Sequence record: PV191315.1
Strand: one strand, 5' to 3'
DNA length: 64,000 nt
Origin: Escherichia phage vB_EcoM-P3322
Part shown: positions 28,108-63,973 of the stretch, one piece after another
Position numbering within the stretch: the stretch's first letter is position 1
How the letters are laid out: each line of letters opens with the position of its first letter
The notes under the pieces: generated by a model
The model's database searches: none
Told to the model about the DNA's origin: nothing
Seen by the model: the letters and a program-made list of their open reading frames with translations, nothing else
Position numbers and translations under genes: made by a program

Positions 28108-28593
28108 ATGTTTCAAGTAAATGTCAATGTGCATAATAGTTACTCTGATTGTGAAACGTGTGGCTATAATTCATCTAATGTTATTCGTATTAGTGGCGAT
28201 TTAGGAGAAGCTTCTTTTGGAGAAGAAGCAAGTTGCTTTAGTGGTATGGATGCAGAATGGAATGATATTGCACATTGGTTAGTGAGCAAACTAAAAGAAA
28301 AAGAGAAACCATTTCCTACTCTGCTTGATCGTTCTCTTGTGGAAGATGCAGGTAAAGCATATGCAGACTATGCGTATGCAGACGGGAAATATTTGGAAGA
28401 TGATAAGGCTAACCATTTGCTTTATGTTTACTATGAAGCTGAATCTGCCTACGATAATTATTACAGCATGTCTAACATCCTACGTCTGTTTGCAGAGTTT
28501 GATATTTATTTCGAAGTAGAATTTTCAGAAGATGATACTTACGAGTACAATTCTTATGATCCATTTGAGGAGGAAGAATGCCAAGACGAGTGA
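28108..28593 (+). CDS. hypothetical acidic protein
   Basis: RBS AGGAGGG. Confidence 0.55.
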   Translation: MFQVNVNVHNSYSDCETCGYNSSNVIRISGDLGEASFGEEASCFSGMDAEWNDIAHWLVSKLKEKEKPFPTLLDRSLVEDAGKAYADYAYADGKYLEDDKANHLLYVYYEAESAYDNYYSMSNILRLFAEFDIYFEVEFSEDDTYEYNSYDPFEEEECQDE

Positions 28594-29393
28594 TTTTTGT
28601 AAGCGGTGCAGGTTTAAGTGCAGACAGTGGGATTCGAACATTTAGAACAGACACAGATAGTGGTCGTGCTTTATGGGAAGAATATGATTTAGAAGAGGTC
28701 TGCGATATTGGAGCTTTCCAGGCAGGTTATCGTGTTAGAACATCTCCAGATCTTCCAGTGGTCGGTGGTGTAGACGAGAACGGTATGGATTTGTATGCCA
28801 AAACACACGAATTTTATAACAAAAGACGTGTTGAGCTTAAAGATGTACAACCTAATGCTGCACATATTCAAATAGCAAAGTGGTTTAAGGAATATCCTAA
28901 CCAAATAGTAAACTTGACAACAAACGTTGATGATCTACTAGAGCGAGCAGGTGTAGACAGAGATTCTGTTATTCACGTACACGGATATCTTCCTGAAGTA
29001 GTTTACCGTATGCATCCTGGAGATTACAAAACACTGGTAGATATTGGTTACAATAGTATAAACATAGATGATTATAACTGGGTGAAGCCTAATGTTGTAT
29101 TTTTTGGTGAGGCTGCACCTTTGTATGCAGATATGGCTCACTTGTTTGATACTTTGACCATGCAAGATTTGGTTGTTGTAGTGGGATGTTCAAACCAAGT
29201 TATCAATTTTAATTGGGAATTGTTCCCTGCACTTAGTATGGGTACAAAAATGATTGTTGTTAACCCAGGAATTAATTACGAAGAAACTCTTCTTTACGAA
29301 GATAGAGGAGTCTTTGTTTACCGAGAAAAAGCTGCAACAGCCTTCAGTAATGAAGGTTTCATTAAAATGGTCGAAGACCACTTAAACAAATAA
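28578..29393 (+). CDS. Sir2-family (sirtuin-like) NAD-binding protein
   Basis: GAGLSADSGIRTFR and TTNVDDLLERAG...HVHG resemble Sir2 motifs; RBS GAGGAGGAAG. Confidence 0.7.
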   Translation: MPRRVIFVSGAGLSADSGIRTFRTDTDSGRALWEEYDLEEVCDIGAFQAGYRVRTSPDLPVVGGVDENGMDLYAKTHEFYNKRRVELKDVQPNAAHIQIAKWFKEYPNQIVNLTTNVDDLLERAGVDRDSVIHVHGYLPEVVYRMHPGDYKTLVDIGYNSINIDDYNWVKPNVVFFGEAAPLYADMAHLFDTLTMQDLVVVVGCSNQVINFNWELFPALSMGTKMIVVNPGINYEETLLYEDRGVFVYREKAATAFSNEGFIKMVEDHLNK

Positions 29394-36222: not shown

Positions 36223-36894
36223 CTATTTAATGTTCAGTCTGGCACACAAACGAGAAACAGTTTTAGCATCCCATTTACCACCACGTGCTGTTGCTATTTT
36301 CTTACTATTGAATTTTTCAGCAATAGTTTTGTAAGGGGTATTTAAATCTCTAAGGATCTCCAAGCGTTCACGGAATGTCTCTGCAAAAGCGTCTGCTTTA
36401 ACAGAATTGTATTCCATTTTTCCTTTTCTACGTGCAGCGGCAGTTTTAGGATTAGCACTGCCTAATAAAACACCTTTACTTTTTGCTACAGCAAGACCCT
36501 TTTTAATACGATCAGCAATACCTCTAACTTCTTGTTCAGCCAGAACAGACAGAAGCTGTATAACCATTTTATCTGCGTCTGGCATAATGGCTATCTTAAC
36601 ATCGATCATTTCTAGAAGAGTTGCTACGGAGGCGTTGTTACGACCCAAGCGGTCAACTTTAGCTACCAATAAAGTTGCTCCGGTAGCTTTACACATTTCA
36701 ACCGCTTTAACCAGTTCCTTACGTTGCTTCCAATCGCCCTTACCCGAATAGTATTCAGAAAATTGACCAATAACTTCCGCATCAGGCACAGAGTCTAAGA
36801 AGTAACGGATATCATTCTCTTGGCTCTCCATACCATATTGTGCCTCACCTTTTTTCTGTTTAGAAAGACGACTGTAAACAACAAACTTTTTCAT
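36223..36894 (-). CDS. serine recombinase (resolvase/invertase family)
   Basis: YSRLS (catalytic Ser region), VAKVDRLGRN, C-terminal HTH-like TARGGKW..TVSRL; ATG 36894 after AGGAGTGG. Confidence 0.75.
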   Translation of the reverse strand: MKKFVVYSRLSKQKKGEAQYGMESQENDIRYFLDSVPDAEVIGQFSEYYSGKGDWKQRKELVKAVEMCKATGATLLVAKVDRLGRNNASVATLLEMIDVKIAIMPDADKMVIQLLSVLAEQEVRGIADRIKKGLAVAKSKGVLLGSANPKTAAARRKGKMEYNSVKADAFAETFRERLEILRDLNTPYKTIAEKFNSKKIATARGGKWDAKTVSRLCARLNIK

Positions 36895-36914
36895 AACCAC
36901 TCCTAAACTATTGC

Positions 36915-46813: not shown

Positions 46814-48434
46814 GACAATCTCCTCTCATCGTTAGCCATCTTTCATGGCAATCATCAATCACCAACATCATACGATCAATCTCAGGGAATTACAATCGAA
46901 TTATCATAGGGGATTCCTATCAATTATCCCATATATACCGATTATTTTTGACACCCCACTCTTGTATAAAAAGTAACCCAAAATATCTACGGGGAGAGAT
47001 TATTTCGGGACACCCTGTTTCATGGCAATCATGGCAAGAATATCTAATAGAATCAATATCATATGGCAAAAATCATGACGCATACGTAAGAAGTGCTTAA
47101 CGCGAATTTTCGGGCCGTCAGGTCCACGCAGCGACAATTCCCAAATATCATGAGAATGAGAATAATTATCATTCGTATTCAATGACTTATGCAAGGCTCA
47201 TGCCAACATAGCGACAAGGTGGGCCACTTGATTATAAATCACACAAACACTTATTTATCAATAGGTTGGCAACTTCATCATATGACGGAACATTGTCAAC
47301 TGATCCCGCTCATGACAAGCAGACTATTATTTATATGAGAATGATTATTATTTAAACGTTTATTAACATAAAAATTAAAATAAATCAAGAATTTTCTGAT
47401 TTTATTTACGTTTAAGAGAAGATGCTCAACATCCTACCGGATCGCCGTTGGCAATCCTCGGATATTTACGCCCCCATGATTAAGGTTTATCTCTTTTCTT
47501 AGTGCTCAACATTCCCGCCCGTGGCGGTAACATTTCGCCCCCAAAATTATTGCTTTTTATTCTATTATGTGCATAGTGTGCAATGTATCGGAATGATGAT
47601 AATCATCCTCCCATTGCCCCCATAATTATTGCCATGCTAATGATTTCATCTTGTAATTACCACAATGATTATTGTTATTGCGCTAATGTTATGATCTTGG
47701 TAATTACATATAATGCTAATAATAAGCCAGCGCAATAAGTGTAAGCGTCATTACGCTTGCAATTATTGCAAGCTACGCAGTAACAAGAAATAACCATCAC
47801 CGATGGTTATGATTGTTGGGGTGTAGTTGGCTTATTATTAGCTCGCTATGTGTCCGGCATAGCGTGCTAATGATGATCCTGGGAATGATTCGTTTTGTAA
47901 TGATTTCATTCAGTCACTATTATGGCAATAGTTATTATTTTAATGGTTTCGTTTGTTATTGTTCGTTAGTTGGTTGTTTTGTCGTGTTATCGTTATCTTG
48001 CTTAGTATTCATCATGGTTTGATTGTTTGTCGTTATCAATCATCTTGCTATTATTCCTTTGATTATGATTAGTTTGCTTATTGTTTTAGGTTGTTGGTTA
48101 GTTAGTTGTTGCGAACTATTATCAACATTATAGTTATGCACTTATATTGCATAGATAAACATGGATAGATGATAATGGTTATCATTGAACTAGAAAAGAG
48201 GTAAAAGGGTGTTTTTGATGGTTTGTTGTTGGTTGTTGATCGATTTTAACCGCTATAAATGGCTCTCTAACAGCCTGTTACCCTGGGAGGTATGGTTATT
48301 CGTTTAATGGTTGATTAGCTCGATACCGCGATTTATTCAATTTTGTTCTGTGTCGGTTTTTCATAGGCGAAAGCTATCAACATTGTTCGGGCAAAAAGAA
48401 AGGGCGCTTGGTGCGCCCCTTGTTTTGTTGTCGC
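46814..48434. other. 1.6-kb ORF-poor region with iterons, palindromes and a GT-skewed tract; candidate origin/packaging/regulatory region
   Basis: No convincing ORF; direct repeats gctaatg..atcttg.taattac; perfect palindrome gcttgcaattattgcaagc; GT-rich low-complexity 47930-48130. Confidence 0.5.
48398..48429 (-). terminator. bidirectional hairpin terminator (copy 1 of AAGGGCGC-N5-GCGCCCTT)
   Basis: aaagggcgc-ttggt-gcgcccctt flanked by T/A runs. Confidence 0.6.
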
Positions 48435-48854
48435 TTATAACGCTTCATAGATTGAGTAGATCCGGTTTGCCAGATCATTACGAAAGCGGAATTTTTCATC
48501 ACGTTTGATCATCAGATCCTTAAAACCGCATTCTTTCAGTGCTTCATTAACTTTATGGCGGCAAACGTTCATATTATCCTGCGCGTCACCAATAAACTTA
48601 TTGCTGTGATGCATTGCTTTGATCTCTTCCTCTAATACCAGGGCAACTACACGGATCGGATCAAGCTGATATGCGGTAACATCCATGCGGCATTGTAGAC
48701 GGCTTTTAACATCGTTTACCGGATATACTGCAACCTCTTCCCCGTCAACGTTCACAATAACCAATTTACCATCGATTTCGAAGCCTTTGGCGGCGCTACC
48801 GTGACAAAAAGCGTTATCGAAGGAGTAAGCTGGATTATTTGATTTAATGTTCAT
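48435..48854 (-). CDS. hypothetical protein
   Basis: ATG 48854 after AAAGGATAA; track start 48938 lacks RBS. Confidence 0.55.
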   Translation of the reverse strand: MNIKSNNPAYSFDNAFCHGSAAKGFEIDGKLVIVNVDGEEVAVYPVNDVKSRLQCRMDVTAYQLDPIRVVALVLEEEIKAMHHSNKFIGDAQDNMNVCRHKVNEALKECGFKDLMIKRDEKFRFRNDLANRIYSIYEAL

Positions 48855-59330: not shown

Positions 59331-59603
59331 GATCTTAACTCCAGGTGATGAATGATGTTTTTTGTTGGTGGACGGTGGATTATGGAGATCCTCACCTTTG
59401 CCCGTCCTGCATTGCGCCCTCCTGTTGTTTATTGTCGTTGTGCCGCGCCCCCCTCGACAAGATGAATACTACGCTACCAGGCGAGGAACGTCAACCACTT
59501 TTTCAATCTTTTTTATTTTCTTTTTGCTTGCTATATATAAAGGAAAGGGCTATCATCTTTCTACCGCGCCAACCAGGGCGCACAACAAAGAAAGGGCGAC
59601 ACC

Positions 59604-59870
59604 ATGACAAATACTACATTACACCTTATGCACTCATTGGGCTGGCAAGGCGGCACGGTGCACCAGGTAGCAAGCGCAACGGGCTTAAAGGTTGAAACAG
59701 TTCTCAACCTGGGCGATCATAAGGTGGAAGAGATAGACCATTTTGATCCGTTCGCTGATGGTTATTTATGGGCTTGCAGTGGCGGCGGGGAAAGCAAGAT
59801 CCCACCAGGGGCGCGGGGCGATATGCATTTTTGGTTAGGTGTCCTTTCCTGGCAAGAAAACAAAAAATAA
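59604..59870 (+). CDS. hypothetical protein (isolated + strand ORF in GC-rich island)
   Basis: Track ORF with non-repetitive sequence; weak RBS. Confidence 0.3.
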   Translation: MTNTTLHLMHSLGWQGGTVHQVASATGLKVETVLNLGDHKVEEIDHFDPFADGYLWACSGGGESKIPPGARGDMHFWLGVLSWQENKK

Positions 59871-59872
59871 TC

Positions 59873-59901
59873 TTGACAAGCCCAGGGATCGGGCTTATAC
59901 T
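59873..59901 (+). promoter_or_regulatory. strong sigma70-like promoter with palindromic spacer, no downstream ORF
   Basis: TTGACA-17nt-TATACT; spacer agccc-agggatc-gggct. Confidence 0.55.
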
Positions 59902-59907
59902 GTTTTA

Positions 59908-60010
59908 CATACAGAAGAGGAAGCGCCACCCCACGGCGTAAAGGCGGGGCTAACATACCAGGGCGCTGGTTGGAAGGTTGATCGCCGGTAGGCTGGGCGC
60001 TATATATTTG
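59908..60010 (+). ncRNA. candidate small structured RNA
   Basis: GC-rich transcript from consensus promoter; no credible ORF; boundaries approximate. Confidence 0.25.
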
Positions 60011-60119
60011 TAAAGAAATGTAAAGATAAAATAATCGCTTGCTTTCCTGGCTGGATCTGTTATTCTTATTACATGGCGAGGGGACACGGGAGCGCGAGAC
60101 AAACACCGCCCCTGCGCGT

Positions 60120-60500
60120 CATTCTCTAAATGAGAATGATTATCATTTACCTTATCAAATAAGAATCAATCTCATTTATAAACCTAAATGCGAATCATTA
60201 TCATTTGCATTTCCATATGAGAACTCTTCTCATTCCCATCTGCATAAATTTTTGTAAACTTTAAATTTTGCTTTTGTACTTTCATTTTTGTAAAAGCAAA
60301 AAAACTTTAAATACTGTGGGCGCGCAAAATTTTTAAAATTTTCCTTGACTTTTGAGTTTTGTTTTGTATCTAACATTTTAAGATAATTTTCCTAAACTTT
60401 AAATTTTGGTTTTCAACTTTCACTTTTGTAAATTCTTAAAAAGTTTAAATAATTTGAGGAATTTTTGAGATAACAAGTAGGGGTAATTTGAGATAACCTT
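60120..60500. repeat. AT-rich iteron cluster
   Basis: Direct repeats aaactttaaattttgNttttNNactttcaNttttgtaaa x2; aatgattatcattt x2; tttgagataac x2. Confidence 0.5.
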
Positions 60501-60593
60501 TAATCTTATTGGCAGACCTTCAGGAACCCACCTAGATCGAATCCTAATGATGCAAACTGAAAAAGATAAGTGTTTGTATAGGACAAAATAATA

Positions 60594-60626
60594 GGCTCTC
60601 TACAGTGTTGTAGGAGCCTTATTTCT
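60594..60626 (-). terminator. bidirectional hairpin terminator downstream of NADAR gene
   Basis: ggctc-t-ctaca-gtgt-tgtag-gagcc flanked by T-rich runs on both strands. Confidence 0.55.
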
Positions 60627-60674: not shown

Positions 60675-61217
60675 TCACAAATATCGTCTTTGCGGTATTT
60701 TGTCTGGGAAAAGTATTTCGATCAGTTTGTTATGATATTTGCCTAAAAGATTCTGCCCTTTCCAGGTGGCAGGGTTTAGCACCCCTGGTTCATACATCCC
60801 CATTCCAATTCCGTAAACCTTATCGTAGGGGCTTGCTTCAACAAACGTTTTGTATTGGTAAAGGTGTAAGTCTGCATACAAATCTGGATTCTGTACATAT
60901 TTCAAGCATAAACCTCGCATAACAATACGCTCACGGTTCTCTTCCCATACGTTGTTATCAAAATCCGACACTGCCCTACCCATACGTTTGTAATAAGCTT
61001 GGATCTTCTCATCTTTCCGTATCAAACTATGAGTCAGAATAGCCTGTGCAGTGTTGTGGTCATTAAAAAGCAAAGCTTTACGCCACATCATGTATTGTTC
61101 GACACAATTAAATGTCTGATTGTAACCTGGTTCGGTTTCTGTAAAGGGTGCAATATACCAATTACTAAAAACATCTTTATGTGAAAAGAAGAATACATAT
61201 TCGTCAGTTATTCTCAT
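60675..61217 (-). CDS. NADAR-domain (YbiA-like) protein
   Basis: 180 aa; N-terminal FFFSH..FSNWY and central NCVEQYMMWRKALLF resemble the NADAR/DUF1768 signature (recall only). Confidence 0.6.
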   Translation of the reverse strand: MRITDEYVFFFSHKDVFSNWYIAPFTETEPGYNQTFNCVEQYMMWRKALLFNDHNTAQAILTHSLIRKDEKIQAYYKRMGRAVSDFDNNVWEENRERIVMRGLCLKYVQNPDLYADLHLYQYKTFVEASPYDKVYGIGMGMYEPGVLNPATWKGQNLLGKYHNKLIEILFPDKIPQRRYL

Positions 61218-61393
61218 TTTTTCATACCTTCTAAGACTTTAGCTTGCCCGTCTTGAAAAGCTTTCATCAGAACTATCTTAAGATTGACTTCCAAGCGTTC
61301 TTCATCCTCTTTATAACAATCCAACACTGCTTTAAGTTCATCATAGTGGTTCAGAATAGGTTTAAAGATTTCATGATCTGCTAAACGTGCCAT
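61214..61393 (-). CDS. hypothetical protein
   Basis: ATG 61393 after AAAGGAGAAAC; track start 61429 overlaps next gene. Confidence 0.5.
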   Translation of the reverse strand: MARLADHEIFKPILNHYDELKAVLDCYKEDEERLEVNLKIVLMKAFQDGQAKVLEGMKK

Positions 61394-61406
61394 AGTTTCT
61401 CCTTTG

Positions 61407-61772
61407 TTAATCCATCCACCAGTAGCCATAAACTGCGTCTGCGTCGATTAGTTTGTGTTTGTTGTTCCGCATGTAGTCTAAGATAAGTAGGCGTTTATTG
61501 TATCTGGAGAGATTATGACCCTCTTTTCCGCCATAGTCAAAATATTTTGCAAGATCTTTGCACTCAAACAAAATTAGTTCGGGAGTTTCTTCACACTGGT
61601 CTGTCTGGTACACTTGACGAATGATCATGTATACATCGTCGTCTTCCGCTAAATGCTCTACTGGTCCACATCCAGCAGGAACAAATTCATAGTCCCATCT
61701 GATCAGATGTTTCTCTACTGCTTCAAAGAAGTCCATTCTTTCGTTGCGCATAATTTGAACGTCAACTAACAT
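61407..61772 (-). CDS. hypothetical protein
   Basis: RBS CAGGAGGAAAC. Confidence 0.6.
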   Translation of the reverse strand: MLVDVQIMRNERMDFFEAVEKHLIRWDYEFVPAGCGPVEHLAEDDDVYMIIRQVYQTDQCEETPELILFECKDLAKYFDYGGKEGHNLSRYNKRLLILDYMRNNKHKLIDADAVYGYWWMD

Positions 61773-62755
61773 GTTTCCTCCTGTAATGTTCCACCATAAA
61801 GTTTATAAATGTTTTGTATTGAGGCCATGCAAGATAACTCTACTGTTTCTGTGTAGCCATCTGGCATAGAATATTTGCTCACTGCTTCCGTGTGAAGGAC
61901 ACGCTTACAACGCTTTTCTGCATCTTTGCATTGCTTCACAGTAGGGAAGTGCCACACTTGGCTCTGTTTCATAGTAAACACATTATGACTATTTTGTTCT
62001 TTGATACGGCGATCACTACTATTGGCAATACCAAACTTCAAAGCACAGAGAAGATTTTGTTCATCGTAGATATAGTTGATGTATGCCTGTTGTTGTGTAT
62101 GCCCTTTACACTTCGGACAACCACGCCCCTTATGTAATAAGTGGTCAGCATTCCCTATTTGCTCCCCGTGATCCTTACATCCATATTTAAACTCTCCTGT
62201 TGAGGAAGGTTTACTAATCCACTCTATCCAGATATATCCTTTACTTTCTAAACCTTTTCTCACCTTGTAAGTGATCTGATCTTTTGTATAACGGTAAACT
62301 CTAGTACAACGACAAGGGATAATCCCTTTTTTAAGATCGTTCCCTGCAATGTAAAATTTACCATCACACACTCCTGCTTGTACGTATTCATCATGAGAAC
62401 AAACAGGACATTCAACCATCCAGAGAATATGACTCCCTTTACGTTTGCCTGTATTGGTGAAAATGGTACCAGGTTTAAACTTTCCTGTGTTAATGAAATC
62501 TTTTATGTGCTGATCGTCTGTCTTACCTCCTTTCCCAAATCCTTTCCCAATTGCACAGACAGGACAACCAGCACGACCAGTTTTAAAGTTTTTAAATGTT
62601 GTAGTGTTCCATTCATGAGCATACTGACAACGATTGATCATTTTCGTGTGTTGTCCTGTAAACGGCTCAACAATTCCAATAATCTCAATCCCTTTAGCAG
62701 CAGCAATAGGTTGACACTCTTCAATATATTGTTCAATACTCTTCTTTACTGGCAT
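61766..62755 (-). CDS. multi-zinc-ribbon protein with C-terminal T5orf172/GIY-YIG-like domain (possible homing-endonuclease-like)
   Basis: Repeated CPVC/CPKC motifs; C-terminal YINYIYDEQNLLCALKFGIANSSDRRIKEQ; ATG 62755 after AGGGAGA. Confidence 0.5.
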   Translation of the reverse strand: MPVKKSIEQYIEECQPIAAAKGIEIIGIVEPFTGQHTKMINRCQYAHEWNTTTFKNFKTGRAGCPVCAIGKGFGKGGKTDDQHIKDFINTGKFKPGTIFTNTGKRKGSHILWMVECPVCSHDEYVQAGVCDGKFYIAGNDLKKGIIPCRCTRVYRYTKDQITYKVRKGLESKGYIWIEWISKPSSTGEFKYGCKDHGEQIGNADHLLHKGRGCPKCKGHTQQQAYINYIYDEQNLLCALKFGIANSSDRRIKEQNSHNVFTMKQSQVWHFPTVKQCKDAEKRCKRVLHTEAVSKYSMPDGYTETVELSCMASIQNIYKLYGGTLQEETC

Positions 62756-62796
62756 ATCTAACAATTATCTCCCTGTTAAACTGAAATCAATATAAC

Positions 62797-62833: not shown

Positions 62834-63973
62834 TCAGAATACGCTACCCAGGGTAGTGGAACGTTGTGTTACAGGCTCCAGCACCACTCGCAGAGTGTTT
62901 CCTGGTGTAGTGCTCATAACCAGAATCTTACCACCTTCAATCAGATCACAAGTTAGACCATCAGCCGTTGCACATAGATCAATATGTGGATCACCATCTT
63001 CATCCAGGATAACATAACTGTTGGTTTCCATTGCTTCCACTTCATCATCTTTCAAACTTTGTAGATAGATGTTCAGGGAACAAGCACCCGACAAAAACTT
63101 AGTAGGGGTGAAGTCGTGCCAGTTATTGATCCAATTCACCTTCAGCGTTTTGCCATTAGCTACGATAGAAGCCACATTCCATTTAGCATCGTTGCCTAAA
63201 GAAATACCCATCATTTCAAGACATTCTTTAAAAGTCATTTTTGGATAGAAATTCAATTCTTCTACAATACCTTGAATAACATCGAAAGACAACTCTGTGC
63301 TAACATCCCATAAACGTTGGAAGTTATCTACGTGTTTTTTATTTACCAAGTTCTTATCCAAGTAATCTAACATAGTTTCACTAGACAGTTTATCGTAATT
63401 GAAACTGTAATAGATACGACTAGGACGGTTTACAAAATATTCCGAGATATAACCACTATTTTTAGTTAGGATGTAAAGTTTATTCCCACTTCCTGTTCCA
63501 TCCAACAAGGTCAACAGTGCTTCCTGATCTTCTTTCTTAGCGTACACTTTATCAAATTCGTCAAATAAAACAACAGCACGATCTGTAATTTTACTCATAA
63601 ATTCTAAGAAGCCAGCATCTGTGTAAGGCTGTGTAACCAAAATGGTTGGAATACCTAAACCTTCTGTGGACATTAGGGACATGCTAATTAGTTTAGCTAA
63701 CATCGTCTTACCACTGCCTTTTGTGCCTGTCAGTAACACCCCAGTATTTTTACCTTCTTTACTACGACGAGCAAATGTTTTAATAACATGTGCGGCGCGG
63801 TCTTTAGTTTCCCCATAAAGAGTGTTCGGAAGAGAGAAACTTTCGCCACGCACTAAAGAGTAGTTACCGTGCGGATCGCAGTTGACAACCCAAACTCCAG
63901 CAGGAAGTTTATTAGCTTCAACACCATATTCCTTATTTACAACAGCCACATCTCCAAAAATAGTGTATTTCAT
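62834..63973 (-). CDS. AAA+/P-loop ATPase (possibly clamp-loader/RFC-like)
   Basis: Walker A GTKGSGKT, Walker B VVLFDEFD; motif order resembles T4 gp44 (recall only); RBS AAAGGAGAAAC. Confidence 0.6.
   Translation of the reverse strand: MKYTIFGDVAVVNKEYGVEANKLPAGVWVVNCDPHGNYSLVRGESFSLPNTLYGETKDRAAHVIKTFARRSKEGKNTGVLLTGTKGSGKTMLAKLISMSLMSTEGLGIPTILVTQPYTDAGFLEFMSKITDRAVVLFDEFDKVYAKKEDQEALLTLLDGTGSGNKLYILTKNSGYISEYFVNRPSRIYYSFNYDKLSSETMLDYLDKNLVNKKHVDNFQRLWDVSTELSFDVIQGIVEELNFYPKMTFKECLEMMGISLGNDAKWNVASIVANGKTLKVNWINNWHDFTPTKFLSGACSLNIYLQSLKDDEVEAMETNSYVILDEDGDPHIDLCATADGLTCDLIEGGKILVMSTTPGNTLRVVLEPVTQRSTTLGSVF

Follow-up and report, generated by a model that had tools for sequence, protein, structure and literature searches.

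Gene, domain, and fold

The window analyzed here is a stretch of 64,000 nucleotides from Escherichia phage vB_EcoM-P3322 (PV191315.1), and this report concerns one of its genes, which encodes a NADAR-domain protein (referred to as the window NADAR). It is compared below with a homolog from Bas60 (Escherichia phage PaulScherrer, MZ501100.1; now Justusliebigvirus, subfamily Stephanstirmvirinae) and with the NADAR protein of Phytophthora nicotianae, whose structure with bound ADP-ribose is available (8BAU).

60675..61217, minus strand: NADAR-domain gene, 180 amino acids (aa); based on the open reading frame (ORF) listing, Pfam, the alignment with 8BAU, a structural model, and identity with the Bas60 protein

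The ORF boundaries at 60675-61217 were exact, and the gene lies on the minus strand with an ATG start codon. This ATG and the stop codon of a 71-aa ORF located upstream overlapped (ATGA), and a Shine-Dalgarno-like sequence, GAAGG, was located ~10 nt 5' of the start. The protein matched the Pfam NADAR family PF08719 (DUF1768) with an E-value of 7.8e-36 and a score of 124.2 bits, above the curated gathering score of 35.1, and the match extended over residues 11-161 of the protein (positions 3-154 of the 163 in the model). PHROG 1017, to which no function is assigned, also matched (E 5e-52), and a phmmer search against PDB sequences retrieved 8BAU (E 4e-15). The AlphaFold2 model, for which a 40-sequence family alignment was used as the input, had a mean predicted local distance difference test (pLDDT) score of 95.6 and a predicted template modeling score (pTM) of 0.89, and showed an alpha-helical core flanked by small beta-sheets, as do 8BAU and E. 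coli YbiA (2B3W). When this model was compared with the PDB using Foldseek, 8BAU (E 2.7e-9, template modeling (TM) score 0.78) and 2B3W (E 2e-6, TM 0.69/0.74) were the matches obtained, with no others at E <1. An earlier note on this DNA, which gave no strand, had named a NADAR/YbiA signature and proposed a profile search; the searches (Pfam, phmmer, and family profile) and Foldseek were strongly positive for NADAR, and, in view of the Pfam, phmmer, and AlphaFold2/Foldseek results, this signature is real well beyond chance.

Active site and family placement

In the alignment with 8BAU, E40, K47, R81, W91, and R95 of the window NADAR corresponded to E43, K50, R79, W89, and R93 of the P. nicotianae protein (Pn), and E127, D132, and Y135 to E125, D130, and W133, respectively. 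E40, K47, W91, E127, and D132 were invariant in the family alignment of 40 homologs, and R81 was nearly so. E40, K47, and E127 are the predicted catalytic residues, and R81, W91, R95, D132, and Y135 the predicted ADP-ribose contacts: among the five contact residues of 8BAU (R79/W89/R93/D130/W133), four were identical, and W133 was conservatively replaced by Y135. E40 and K47 aligned with the Glu and Lys by which the distal ribose and the diphosphate are positioned (Pn E43/K50, E. coli C7 E88/K95, and T4 E36/K43). Pn E43, K50, and the acid at E125 are mechanistically important, and the last of these is replaced by Asp in DarG1 and by His in T4-like phage NADARs (PMC11543638). In addition, mutating E36 and K43 of the T4 protein (gp30.3, or AdfN^T4) impaired counter-defence (PMC11825919).

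E127 belongs to an EASPYD motif (E127-A128-S129-P-Y-D132), which was invariant in the family alignment. The catalytic segments in a nine-sequence alignment were as follows.

VEASPYD: window NADAR, Bas60, Seunavirus, and two bacterial NADARs
VEASPRD: Certrevirus
YEASRHD: P. nicotianae NADAR
VEHTEND: E. coli YbiA
LKHSI: T4 gp30.3

Identity with the window NADAR was 43-47% for stand-alone bacterial NADARs, 35% for the P. nicotianae NADAR, 30% for YbiA, and 18% for T4 gp30.3. A profile built from the family gave 8BAU 125 bits and YbiA 61 bits, while no DarG1 structure was retrieved at E <=1. The protein has the catalytic Glu (Pn E125, SCO5665 E167), which lies in an E-A-S...D motif. The catalytic segments, identities, and profile scores together place it in the Glu-type "NADAR proper" group, not with the DarG1- or T4-like proteins, and probably not with the YbiA-like ones; this agrees with the published position of the Bas60 protein (AdfN^Bas60) among bacterial NADARs that belong to neither the YbiA nor the DarG1 group.

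Several more specific identities were rejected. A DarG1-like protein would carry Asp in place of E127 and an N-terminal beta-beta-alpha extension, which was not found (in the model, the core fold begins at residue 2 and the first conserved strand consists of residues 7-10), and there was no ADP-ribosyltransferase (ART) gene nearby. A T4-like identity (His in place of the catalytic Glu and a minimal core domain) was rejected on the basis of the His found in T4 in place of E127 and 18% identity; T4 gp30.3 matched no NCBIfam model, whereas the window NADAR passed TIGR02464 ("riboflavin biosynthesis intermediates N-glycosidase"; 113 bits, cut-off of 73.7). Since this model was also passed by YbiA (169 bits), two non-YbiA bacterial NADARs (169-171 bits), and the Bas60 protein (109 bits), it is uninformative on both the subfamily and a function in riboflavin metabolism. 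The score for NF053876, "NADAR family anti-phage protein", was 17 bits against a cut-off of 240, which excludes membership, and the sole PADLOC match, the candidate-system model PDC-M42C, was uninformative on function.

Operon and genomic context

The 2-kb region containing the gene was 95-99% identical to many genomes of Phapecoctavirus, subfamily Stephanstirmvirinae (phAPEC8, ESCO5, tuntematon, and iGC_PHA_EC001); the window belongs to this genus, and the protein was 100% identical to the copy in Phapecoctavirus 536P1. The phAPEC8 homolog is gp010, annotated as hypothetical. Copies with at least 80% identity were present in about 70 Phapecoctavirus records, and an ortholog in 56 Justusliebigvirus records. 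The gene is the last of a leftward chain of overlapping or closely spaced minus-strand genes.

62834-63973, minus strand: AAA ATPase, in the same operon
61766-62764, minus strand: endonuclease-like gene (CapR + T5orf172-like, homing-endonuclease-like; CapR 78 bits, weak T5orf172 and MUG113 matches, PHROG 681)
61407..61772, minus strand: 121-aa ORF in the overlapping gene chain, function not assigned (PHROG 24465)
61214..61429, minus strand: 71-aa ORF, function not assigned (PHROG 22330); ends in an ATGA overlap with the start codon of NADAR
61512..61540, minus strand: sigma-70-like promoter match TTGACT-17-CATAAT (10/12) inside the 121-aa ORF, by consensus match only

Because of the ATGA overlap, the 71-aa ORF and the NADAR gene are probably translationally coupled, and the promoter match could drive both. 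The 121-aa and 71-aa ORFs were found in Phapecoctavirus and were absent from Justusliebigvirus. No ADP-ribosyltransferase domain was detected in the upstream genes of the operon or in five ORFs scanned beyond the intergenic region on the other side, and PADLOC returned no matching hit among the operon genes. These results indicate that the NADAR gene is an orphan and not one half of a toxin-antitoxin pair: it is phage-encoded, as is AdfN, with no adjacent DarT toxin. There was also no tRNA gene or credible Rfam match around it.

The identity of the endonuclease-like gene to its phAPEC8 counterpart was only 72%, compared with 97-100% for its neighbors, and the gene is longer in phAPEC8 and Bas60. 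These differences in identity and length suggest that it is a variable, probably mobile, gene located beside a counter-defence gene.

Orthology with AdfN^Bas60

The Bas60 homolog, bas60_0111 (QXV83846.1), is annotated as "putative YbiA-like N-glycosidase", and this NADAR is common to the three BASEL Justusliebigvirus phages (56 records in all). The window NADAR was 59% identical to it over 172 residues (E 1e-69). The gene order was also shared with Bas60: ATPase, endonuclease, NADAR, intergenic region, opposite-strand 88-aa ORF, orf90, and orf188, with the following protein identities between the window and Bas60.

ATPase: 64%
Endonuclease-like gene: 55%
NADAR: 59%
Opposite-strand 88-aa ORF, past the intergenic block: 95%
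orf90: 91%
orf188: 65%

Given 59% identity and the conserved gene order, the window NADAR and bas60_0111 are positional orthologs. Orthology with an experimentally validated AdfN was thus found through bas60_0111, which was identified as AdfN^Bas60 by its annotation and distribution.

NADARs remove ADP-ribose from the N2 of guanine and act as the DarG1 antitoxin (Schuller et al. 2023; PMC11543638). T4 gp30.3 and YbiA hydrolyze ADP-ribosylated guanine (G-ADPr) in vitro, but did not rescue cells from DarT1 (Cihlova et al. 2024; PMC11125620). Johannesman et al. (2025, Nat Commun; PMC11825919) gave the phage proteins the name AdfN, and reported that AdfN^T4, AdfN^Bas32, and AdfN^Bas60 counter DarTG1, while DarTG2 was unaffected by any of the three. 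AdfN^Bas60 neutralizes the toxicity of DarT1 with no other phage factor needed, and enables RB69, T5, and Bas25 to plate again on hosts with DarTG1 (PMC11825919). Hydrolysis of guanine-linked, but not thymine-linked, ADP-ribose was demonstrated in vitro for AdfN^T4, and was deduced for AdfN^Bas60 from rescue from DarT1 and no rescue from DarTG2. According to a 2025 preprint, T4 adfN is dispensable on E. coli K-12 and essential on DarTG1 hosts. A literature search found no paper pairing AdfN or DarTG1 with Phapecoctavirus or Stephanstirmvirinae.

Comparison with known NADAR proteins

The closest of the known systems is AdfN^Bas60, which comes from the same subfamily and shares 59% identity, the EASPYD motif, a similar TIGR02464 score, and an insertion of ~7 residues after the helix formed by residues 54-62; its gene likewise follows ATPase and endonuclease-like genes and precedes the same conserved intergenic block. 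On the other hand, 41% of the residues differ, and the activity of the window protein is a prediction; in Phapecoctavirus, the endonuclease and NADAR genes are separated by two additional small ORFs; and the downstream sequences are unlike, the Phapecoctavirus terminator not being shared.

The NADAR proper group (8BAU, SCO5665, and stand-alone bacterial proteins; Schuller et al. 2023; Toxins 2026) provided the best structural (TM 0.78) and profile (125 bits) match and has the catalytic Glu, and the stand-alone bacterial NADARs with 43-47% identity are from Burkholderia and a Kofleriaceae metagenome-assembled genome. The window protein differs from this group in its origin from a lytic phage, in the replacement of Pn W133 by Y135, and in a clade-specific insertion (residues 63-71). 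AdfN^T4 is likewise an orphan phage NADAR that counters DarTG1, and its E36/K43 correspond to E40/K47; however, it has only 18% identity and His in place of E127, and requires the T-even infection context, whereas AdfN^Bas60 is sufficient alone. The T4-type and window/Bas60-type NADARs appear to be independent acquisitions.

DarG1 (the BC4488 family) belongs to the same superfamily, and the reaction, removal of ADP-ribose from guanine N2, is presumed to be the same in the window NADAR, but the catalytic Asp, the N-terminal beta-beta-alpha extension, and the adjacent darT1 of DarG1 have no counterpart here. YbiA shares the fold (TM 0.69-0.74), and both proteins pass TIGR02464; however, it is 30% identical, has EHTEND where the window NADAR has EASPYD, is encoded in a chromosomal rhlE-ybiA-dinG-ybiB locus, and does not counter DarT1 in cells.

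Proposed function and alternative explanations

On these grounds, the product of the window gene is probably (at roughly 0.77) an AdfN-type anti-DarT factor, namely an orphan NADAR ADP-ribosyl glycohydrolase with a single domain, which would reverse DarT1 marks on phage DNA. The earlier note had suggested counter-defence against DarT-like toxins; experiments with the Bas60 ortholog, by which DarT1 was neutralized, support this part, but not an extension to DarT in general because DarTG2 was unaffected. By analogy, the expected target is guanine ADP-ribosylation by DarT1, and not thymidine ADP-ribosylation by DarT2.

We infer the enzymatic activity, in vivo target, and expression timing of the window NADAR, and propose the following course of events. 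On infection of a DarTG1 host, DarT1 would be released and would modify guanines of the phage DNA with ADP-ribose at the N2 amino group, thereby blocking replication. The phage NADAR may then bind the ADP-ribose moiety via R81, W91, R95, D132, and Y135, with E40 and K47 positioning the distal ribose and E127 cleaving the bond between ribose and guanine. Unmodified DNA would be restored, and replication could proceed. The target of the protein would be the lesion and not the toxin; therefore, it should counter any guanine-directed DNA ADP-ribosyltransferase, but not the thymine modification of DarT2.

Four points weigh against this assignment. The 59% identity with the Bas60 NADAR leaves room for a shift in the substrate or in efficiency in the cell. 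Specificity in cells varies among NADARs, as with T4 gp30.3 and YbiA, which gave no rescue from DarT1 (PMC11125620). bas60_0111 was equated with the published AdfN^Bas60 through its annotation and its presence in the three BASEL Justusliebigvirus phages. Lastly, the riboflavin N-glycosidase model TIGR02464 is passed (113 bits vs 73.7).

It is unlikely, though the likeliest of the alternatives, that the main substrates are ADP-ribosylated RNA or cytidine-linked ADP-ribose (C-ADPr) produced by ART toxins other than DarT1, the reversal of DarT1 being one facet; such toxins could be pierisin/ScARP-like or YarT-like, or belong to defences yet undescribed. The Glu-type site (E127-A-S129...D132) is the same as that in SCO5665 and the P. 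nicotianae NADAR, and Glu-bearing enzymes of the NADAR family and the YbiA type remove both C-ADPr and G-ADPr from DNA and RNA, whereas those with Asp (DarG1) or His (T4) are limited to G (PMC12945103). Wider targets were also proposed by Johannesman et al. (PMC11825919). Nevertheless, the phenotype demonstrated for the ortholog is against DarTG1. Furthermore, we know of no phage defence that uses C-ADPr, or G-ADPr on RNA. The Glu-type EASPYD site and the removal of C-ADPr and G-ADPr by Glu-type enzymes also make it conceivable, if doubtful, that the Stephanstirmvirinae NADAR is a broad-spectrum eraser (G and C, DNA and RNA) directed against several ADP-ribosylating defences, some of them undiscovered.

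It is very improbable that the protein is a YbiA-type N-glycosidase with a housekeeping role in the destruction of reactive intermediates from the riboflavin pathway. The TIGR02464 score and the labels "YbiA-like N-glycosidase", "swarming motility protein", and "GTP cyclohydrolase II" on several records would fit such an enzyme; however, the model does not discriminate between NADAR types, as the anti-DarT1 Bas60 protein itself scores 109, and the family profile scored twice as high on the P. nicotianae NADAR (125 bits) as on YbiA (61 bits). The low identity (30%), EASPYD in place of EHTEND, and the single NADAR domain, which spans the whole protein with no RibA domain, argue in the same direction, and Johannesman et al. 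found only one phage NADAR that was even distantly related to the YbiA group (PMC11825919).

It is just as improbable that the protein is a non-catalytic binder of ADP-ribose that blocks an NAD+-consuming defence, such as Retron-Eco1, instead of repairing DNA: its ADP-ribose-binding residues are conserved, but the invariance of E40, K47, and E127 across 40 homologs argues for selection on catalysis, and the Bas60 ortholog counters DarT1. Carabias et al. are said to have described an inhibitor of Retron-Eco1 in 2024.

Terminator-like element downstream of the NADAR gene

60583..60619, minus strand: intrinsic-terminator-like element, consisting of a hairpin (60593-60619) and the U-tract AUUAUUUUGU (60583-60592)

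The hairpin lies 56 nt 3' of the NADAR stop codon and has 11 pairs with one bulge; its sequence on the gene strand is GGCUC-CUACA, loop ACAC, UGUAG-A-GAGCC, and AUUAUUUUGU comes next. The 71-nt stretch that includes the hairpin folded with -23.2 kcal/mol (z = -5.4), and none of 200 shuffled sequences folded as well. This stretch was 97% identical in five Phapecoctavirus genomes, the NADAR proteins of which differ by up to 9%, and an ARNold terminator is annotated at the homologous site in the phAPEC8 RefSeq record. A simple terminator scan missed the hairpin on both strands, and it was recovered by folding and from the phAPEC8 annotation. In Justusliebigvirus, the terminator was not conserved, a different sequence being found downstream of the Bas60 gene.

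The NADAR operon thus has a good candidate terminator in this element. The earlier note had described it as strong and bidirectional: a terminator on the minus strand was largely confirmed by the folding energy, ARNold annotation, and conservation, while termination in both directions is plausible at most. For the plus strand, the U-tract, UUAUUUCU, was weaker and z was -3.4. A single gene on the plus strand is close by (59604-59870), and a terminator-like hairpin of its own (59878-59896) directly follows its stop codon.

Conserved intergenic region

The intergenic region adjoining NADAR, which is conserved across rV5-like phages, is a more unusual feature than the gene itself.

59604-59870, plus strand: 88-aa ORF, opposite to all its neighbors (PHROG 19316, no Pfam match)
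59873-59901, plus strand: near-consensus sigma-70 promoter TTGACA-17-TATACT (11/12), by consensus match
59905-60000, plus strand: GC-rich non-coding block 1, by sequence conservation
60078-60147, plus strand: GC-rich non-coding block 2 (about 70 nt), preceded by a conserved promoter-like TTGC-N17-TAnnAT, by sequence conservation
60129-60234: 19-bp palindrome AATGAGAATGATTATCATT, repeated three to four times at 29-bp intervals shortly after the conserved block
47155-47173, 47334-47352, and 48168-48186: further sites of the AATGAGAATGATTATCATT motif

An island at 59371-60148 showed 92% nucleotide identity with Bas60, compared with about 70-72% in the flanking genes. The protein of the 88-aa ORF within it was 95-97% identical across genera. 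Nine positions of this ORF differed from Bas60; six of them were third codon positions, which argues that the ORF is coding and under purifying selection. The minus-strand "gp009" annotated in phAPEC8 at this island is probably spurious.

Blocks 1 and 2 were 70-78% conserved in Seunavirus, Certrevirus, and Mydovirus, always in unannotated DNA, and block 2 was additionally conserved in Vequintavirus. Block 2 adopted a similar two-hairpin fold in every lineage, with a conserved GAGACAAWCAC loop and differing stem sequences. The consensus energies from RNAalifold for the conserved non-coding block were weak (-6 to -7 kcal/mol), since the stems of different lineages are not in register. Rfam returned no match for the conserved non-coding blocks, a single-sequence fold of 59905-60125 was not better than those of shuffled sequences (z = 0.57), and a pattern scan of IMG/VR for the conserved non-coding block yielded only chance matches in unrelated contigs. 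The conserved block may represent a small RNA or leader of the phage, or may belong to a replication origin.

Six distinct sites of the AATGAGAATGATTATCATT motif were present in the window, where chance alone would give 0.06. It resembles the E. coli Fur box, GATAATGATAATCATTATC, with 16 of the 19 positions agreeing at 60132-60150, and matches to the Fur consensus with up to four mismatches numbered 6 (0.4 expected). The motif was kept in every rV5-like phage aligned, and a literature search found nothing on Fur boxes in rV5-like phages. A second region of ~1.6 kb (46815-48435) has no ORF longer than 69 aa, and contains three Fur-box-like motifs together with unusual T/G-rich repeats.

An AT-rich stretch of about 350 bp (60240-60600, 25-30% GC) separates the palindromes from the NADAR terminator; in it, a 72-nt unit is present twice (60247-60318 and 60385-60456, 82% identical), as is the direct repeat TTTGAGATAAC. 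It is a matter of speculation that this stretch, taken together with the promoters and iteron-like repeats, is the unwinding element of a replication origin. Two readings fit the region as a whole: small RNAs with a Fur-regulated or Fur-titrating region, and a replication origin composed of promoters, iterons, and an AT-rich unwinding element.

Two further genes of the window were noted. A Sir2-family protein of 271 aa (28578-29393, plus strand; Pfam PF02146, 80.5 bits; PHROG 2162, E 2e-104) is an NAD+-dependent enzyme; there was no evidence for a link with the NADAR gene, from which it is separated by 31 kb in an opposite transcription block. A serine-recombinase-like ORF of 225 aa (36223-36900, minus strand; Resolvase N-terminal PF00239, E 5e-18) is present in this lytic myophage.

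Public annotation and significance

Orthologous genes carry the labels "GTP cyclohydrolase II", "DNA methyltransferase", "Dda-like helicase", "swarming motility protein", and "hypothetical protein" in public records (including ESCO5 NC_047776.2, TSP7_1 MW175890.1, Eryne PQ529420.1, and vB_Kpl_K54lambda1.1.1 OY979426.1); the sole label that fits the sequence is "NADAR family protein". "GTP cyclohydrolase II" (RibA) was rejected because the protein has no RibA domain, the only Pfam hit at E <=0.1 being NADAR over nearly the whole protein, and this label was presumably carried over from RibA-NADAR fusion proteins.

Homologs were present in about 720 phage records, including Staphylococcus Kayvirus-like, Listeria A511-like, Enterococcus, and Bacillus SPO1-like myophages, Lak megaphages, and Xanthomonas Xp12, which indicates that large lytic phages of many hosts carry Glu-type orphan NADARs.

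The NADAR call is correct, but not new, since the biology was published in 2025 for a positional ortholog with 59% identity; with both the concept and a close ortholog in print, no new question is opened. A function in DarTG1 counter-defence may nevertheless be assigned to a gene that is hypothetical or misnamed in most of about 125 Stephanstirmvirinae records, and the results support repeated uptake of NADAR by phages from different branches of the superfamily. Many of these Stephanstirmvirinae phages are therapy candidates against avian pathogenic, Shiga toxin-producing, and multidrug-resistant E. coli, and the prediction that they would resist DarTG1-carrying hosts bears on the prediction of their host range.

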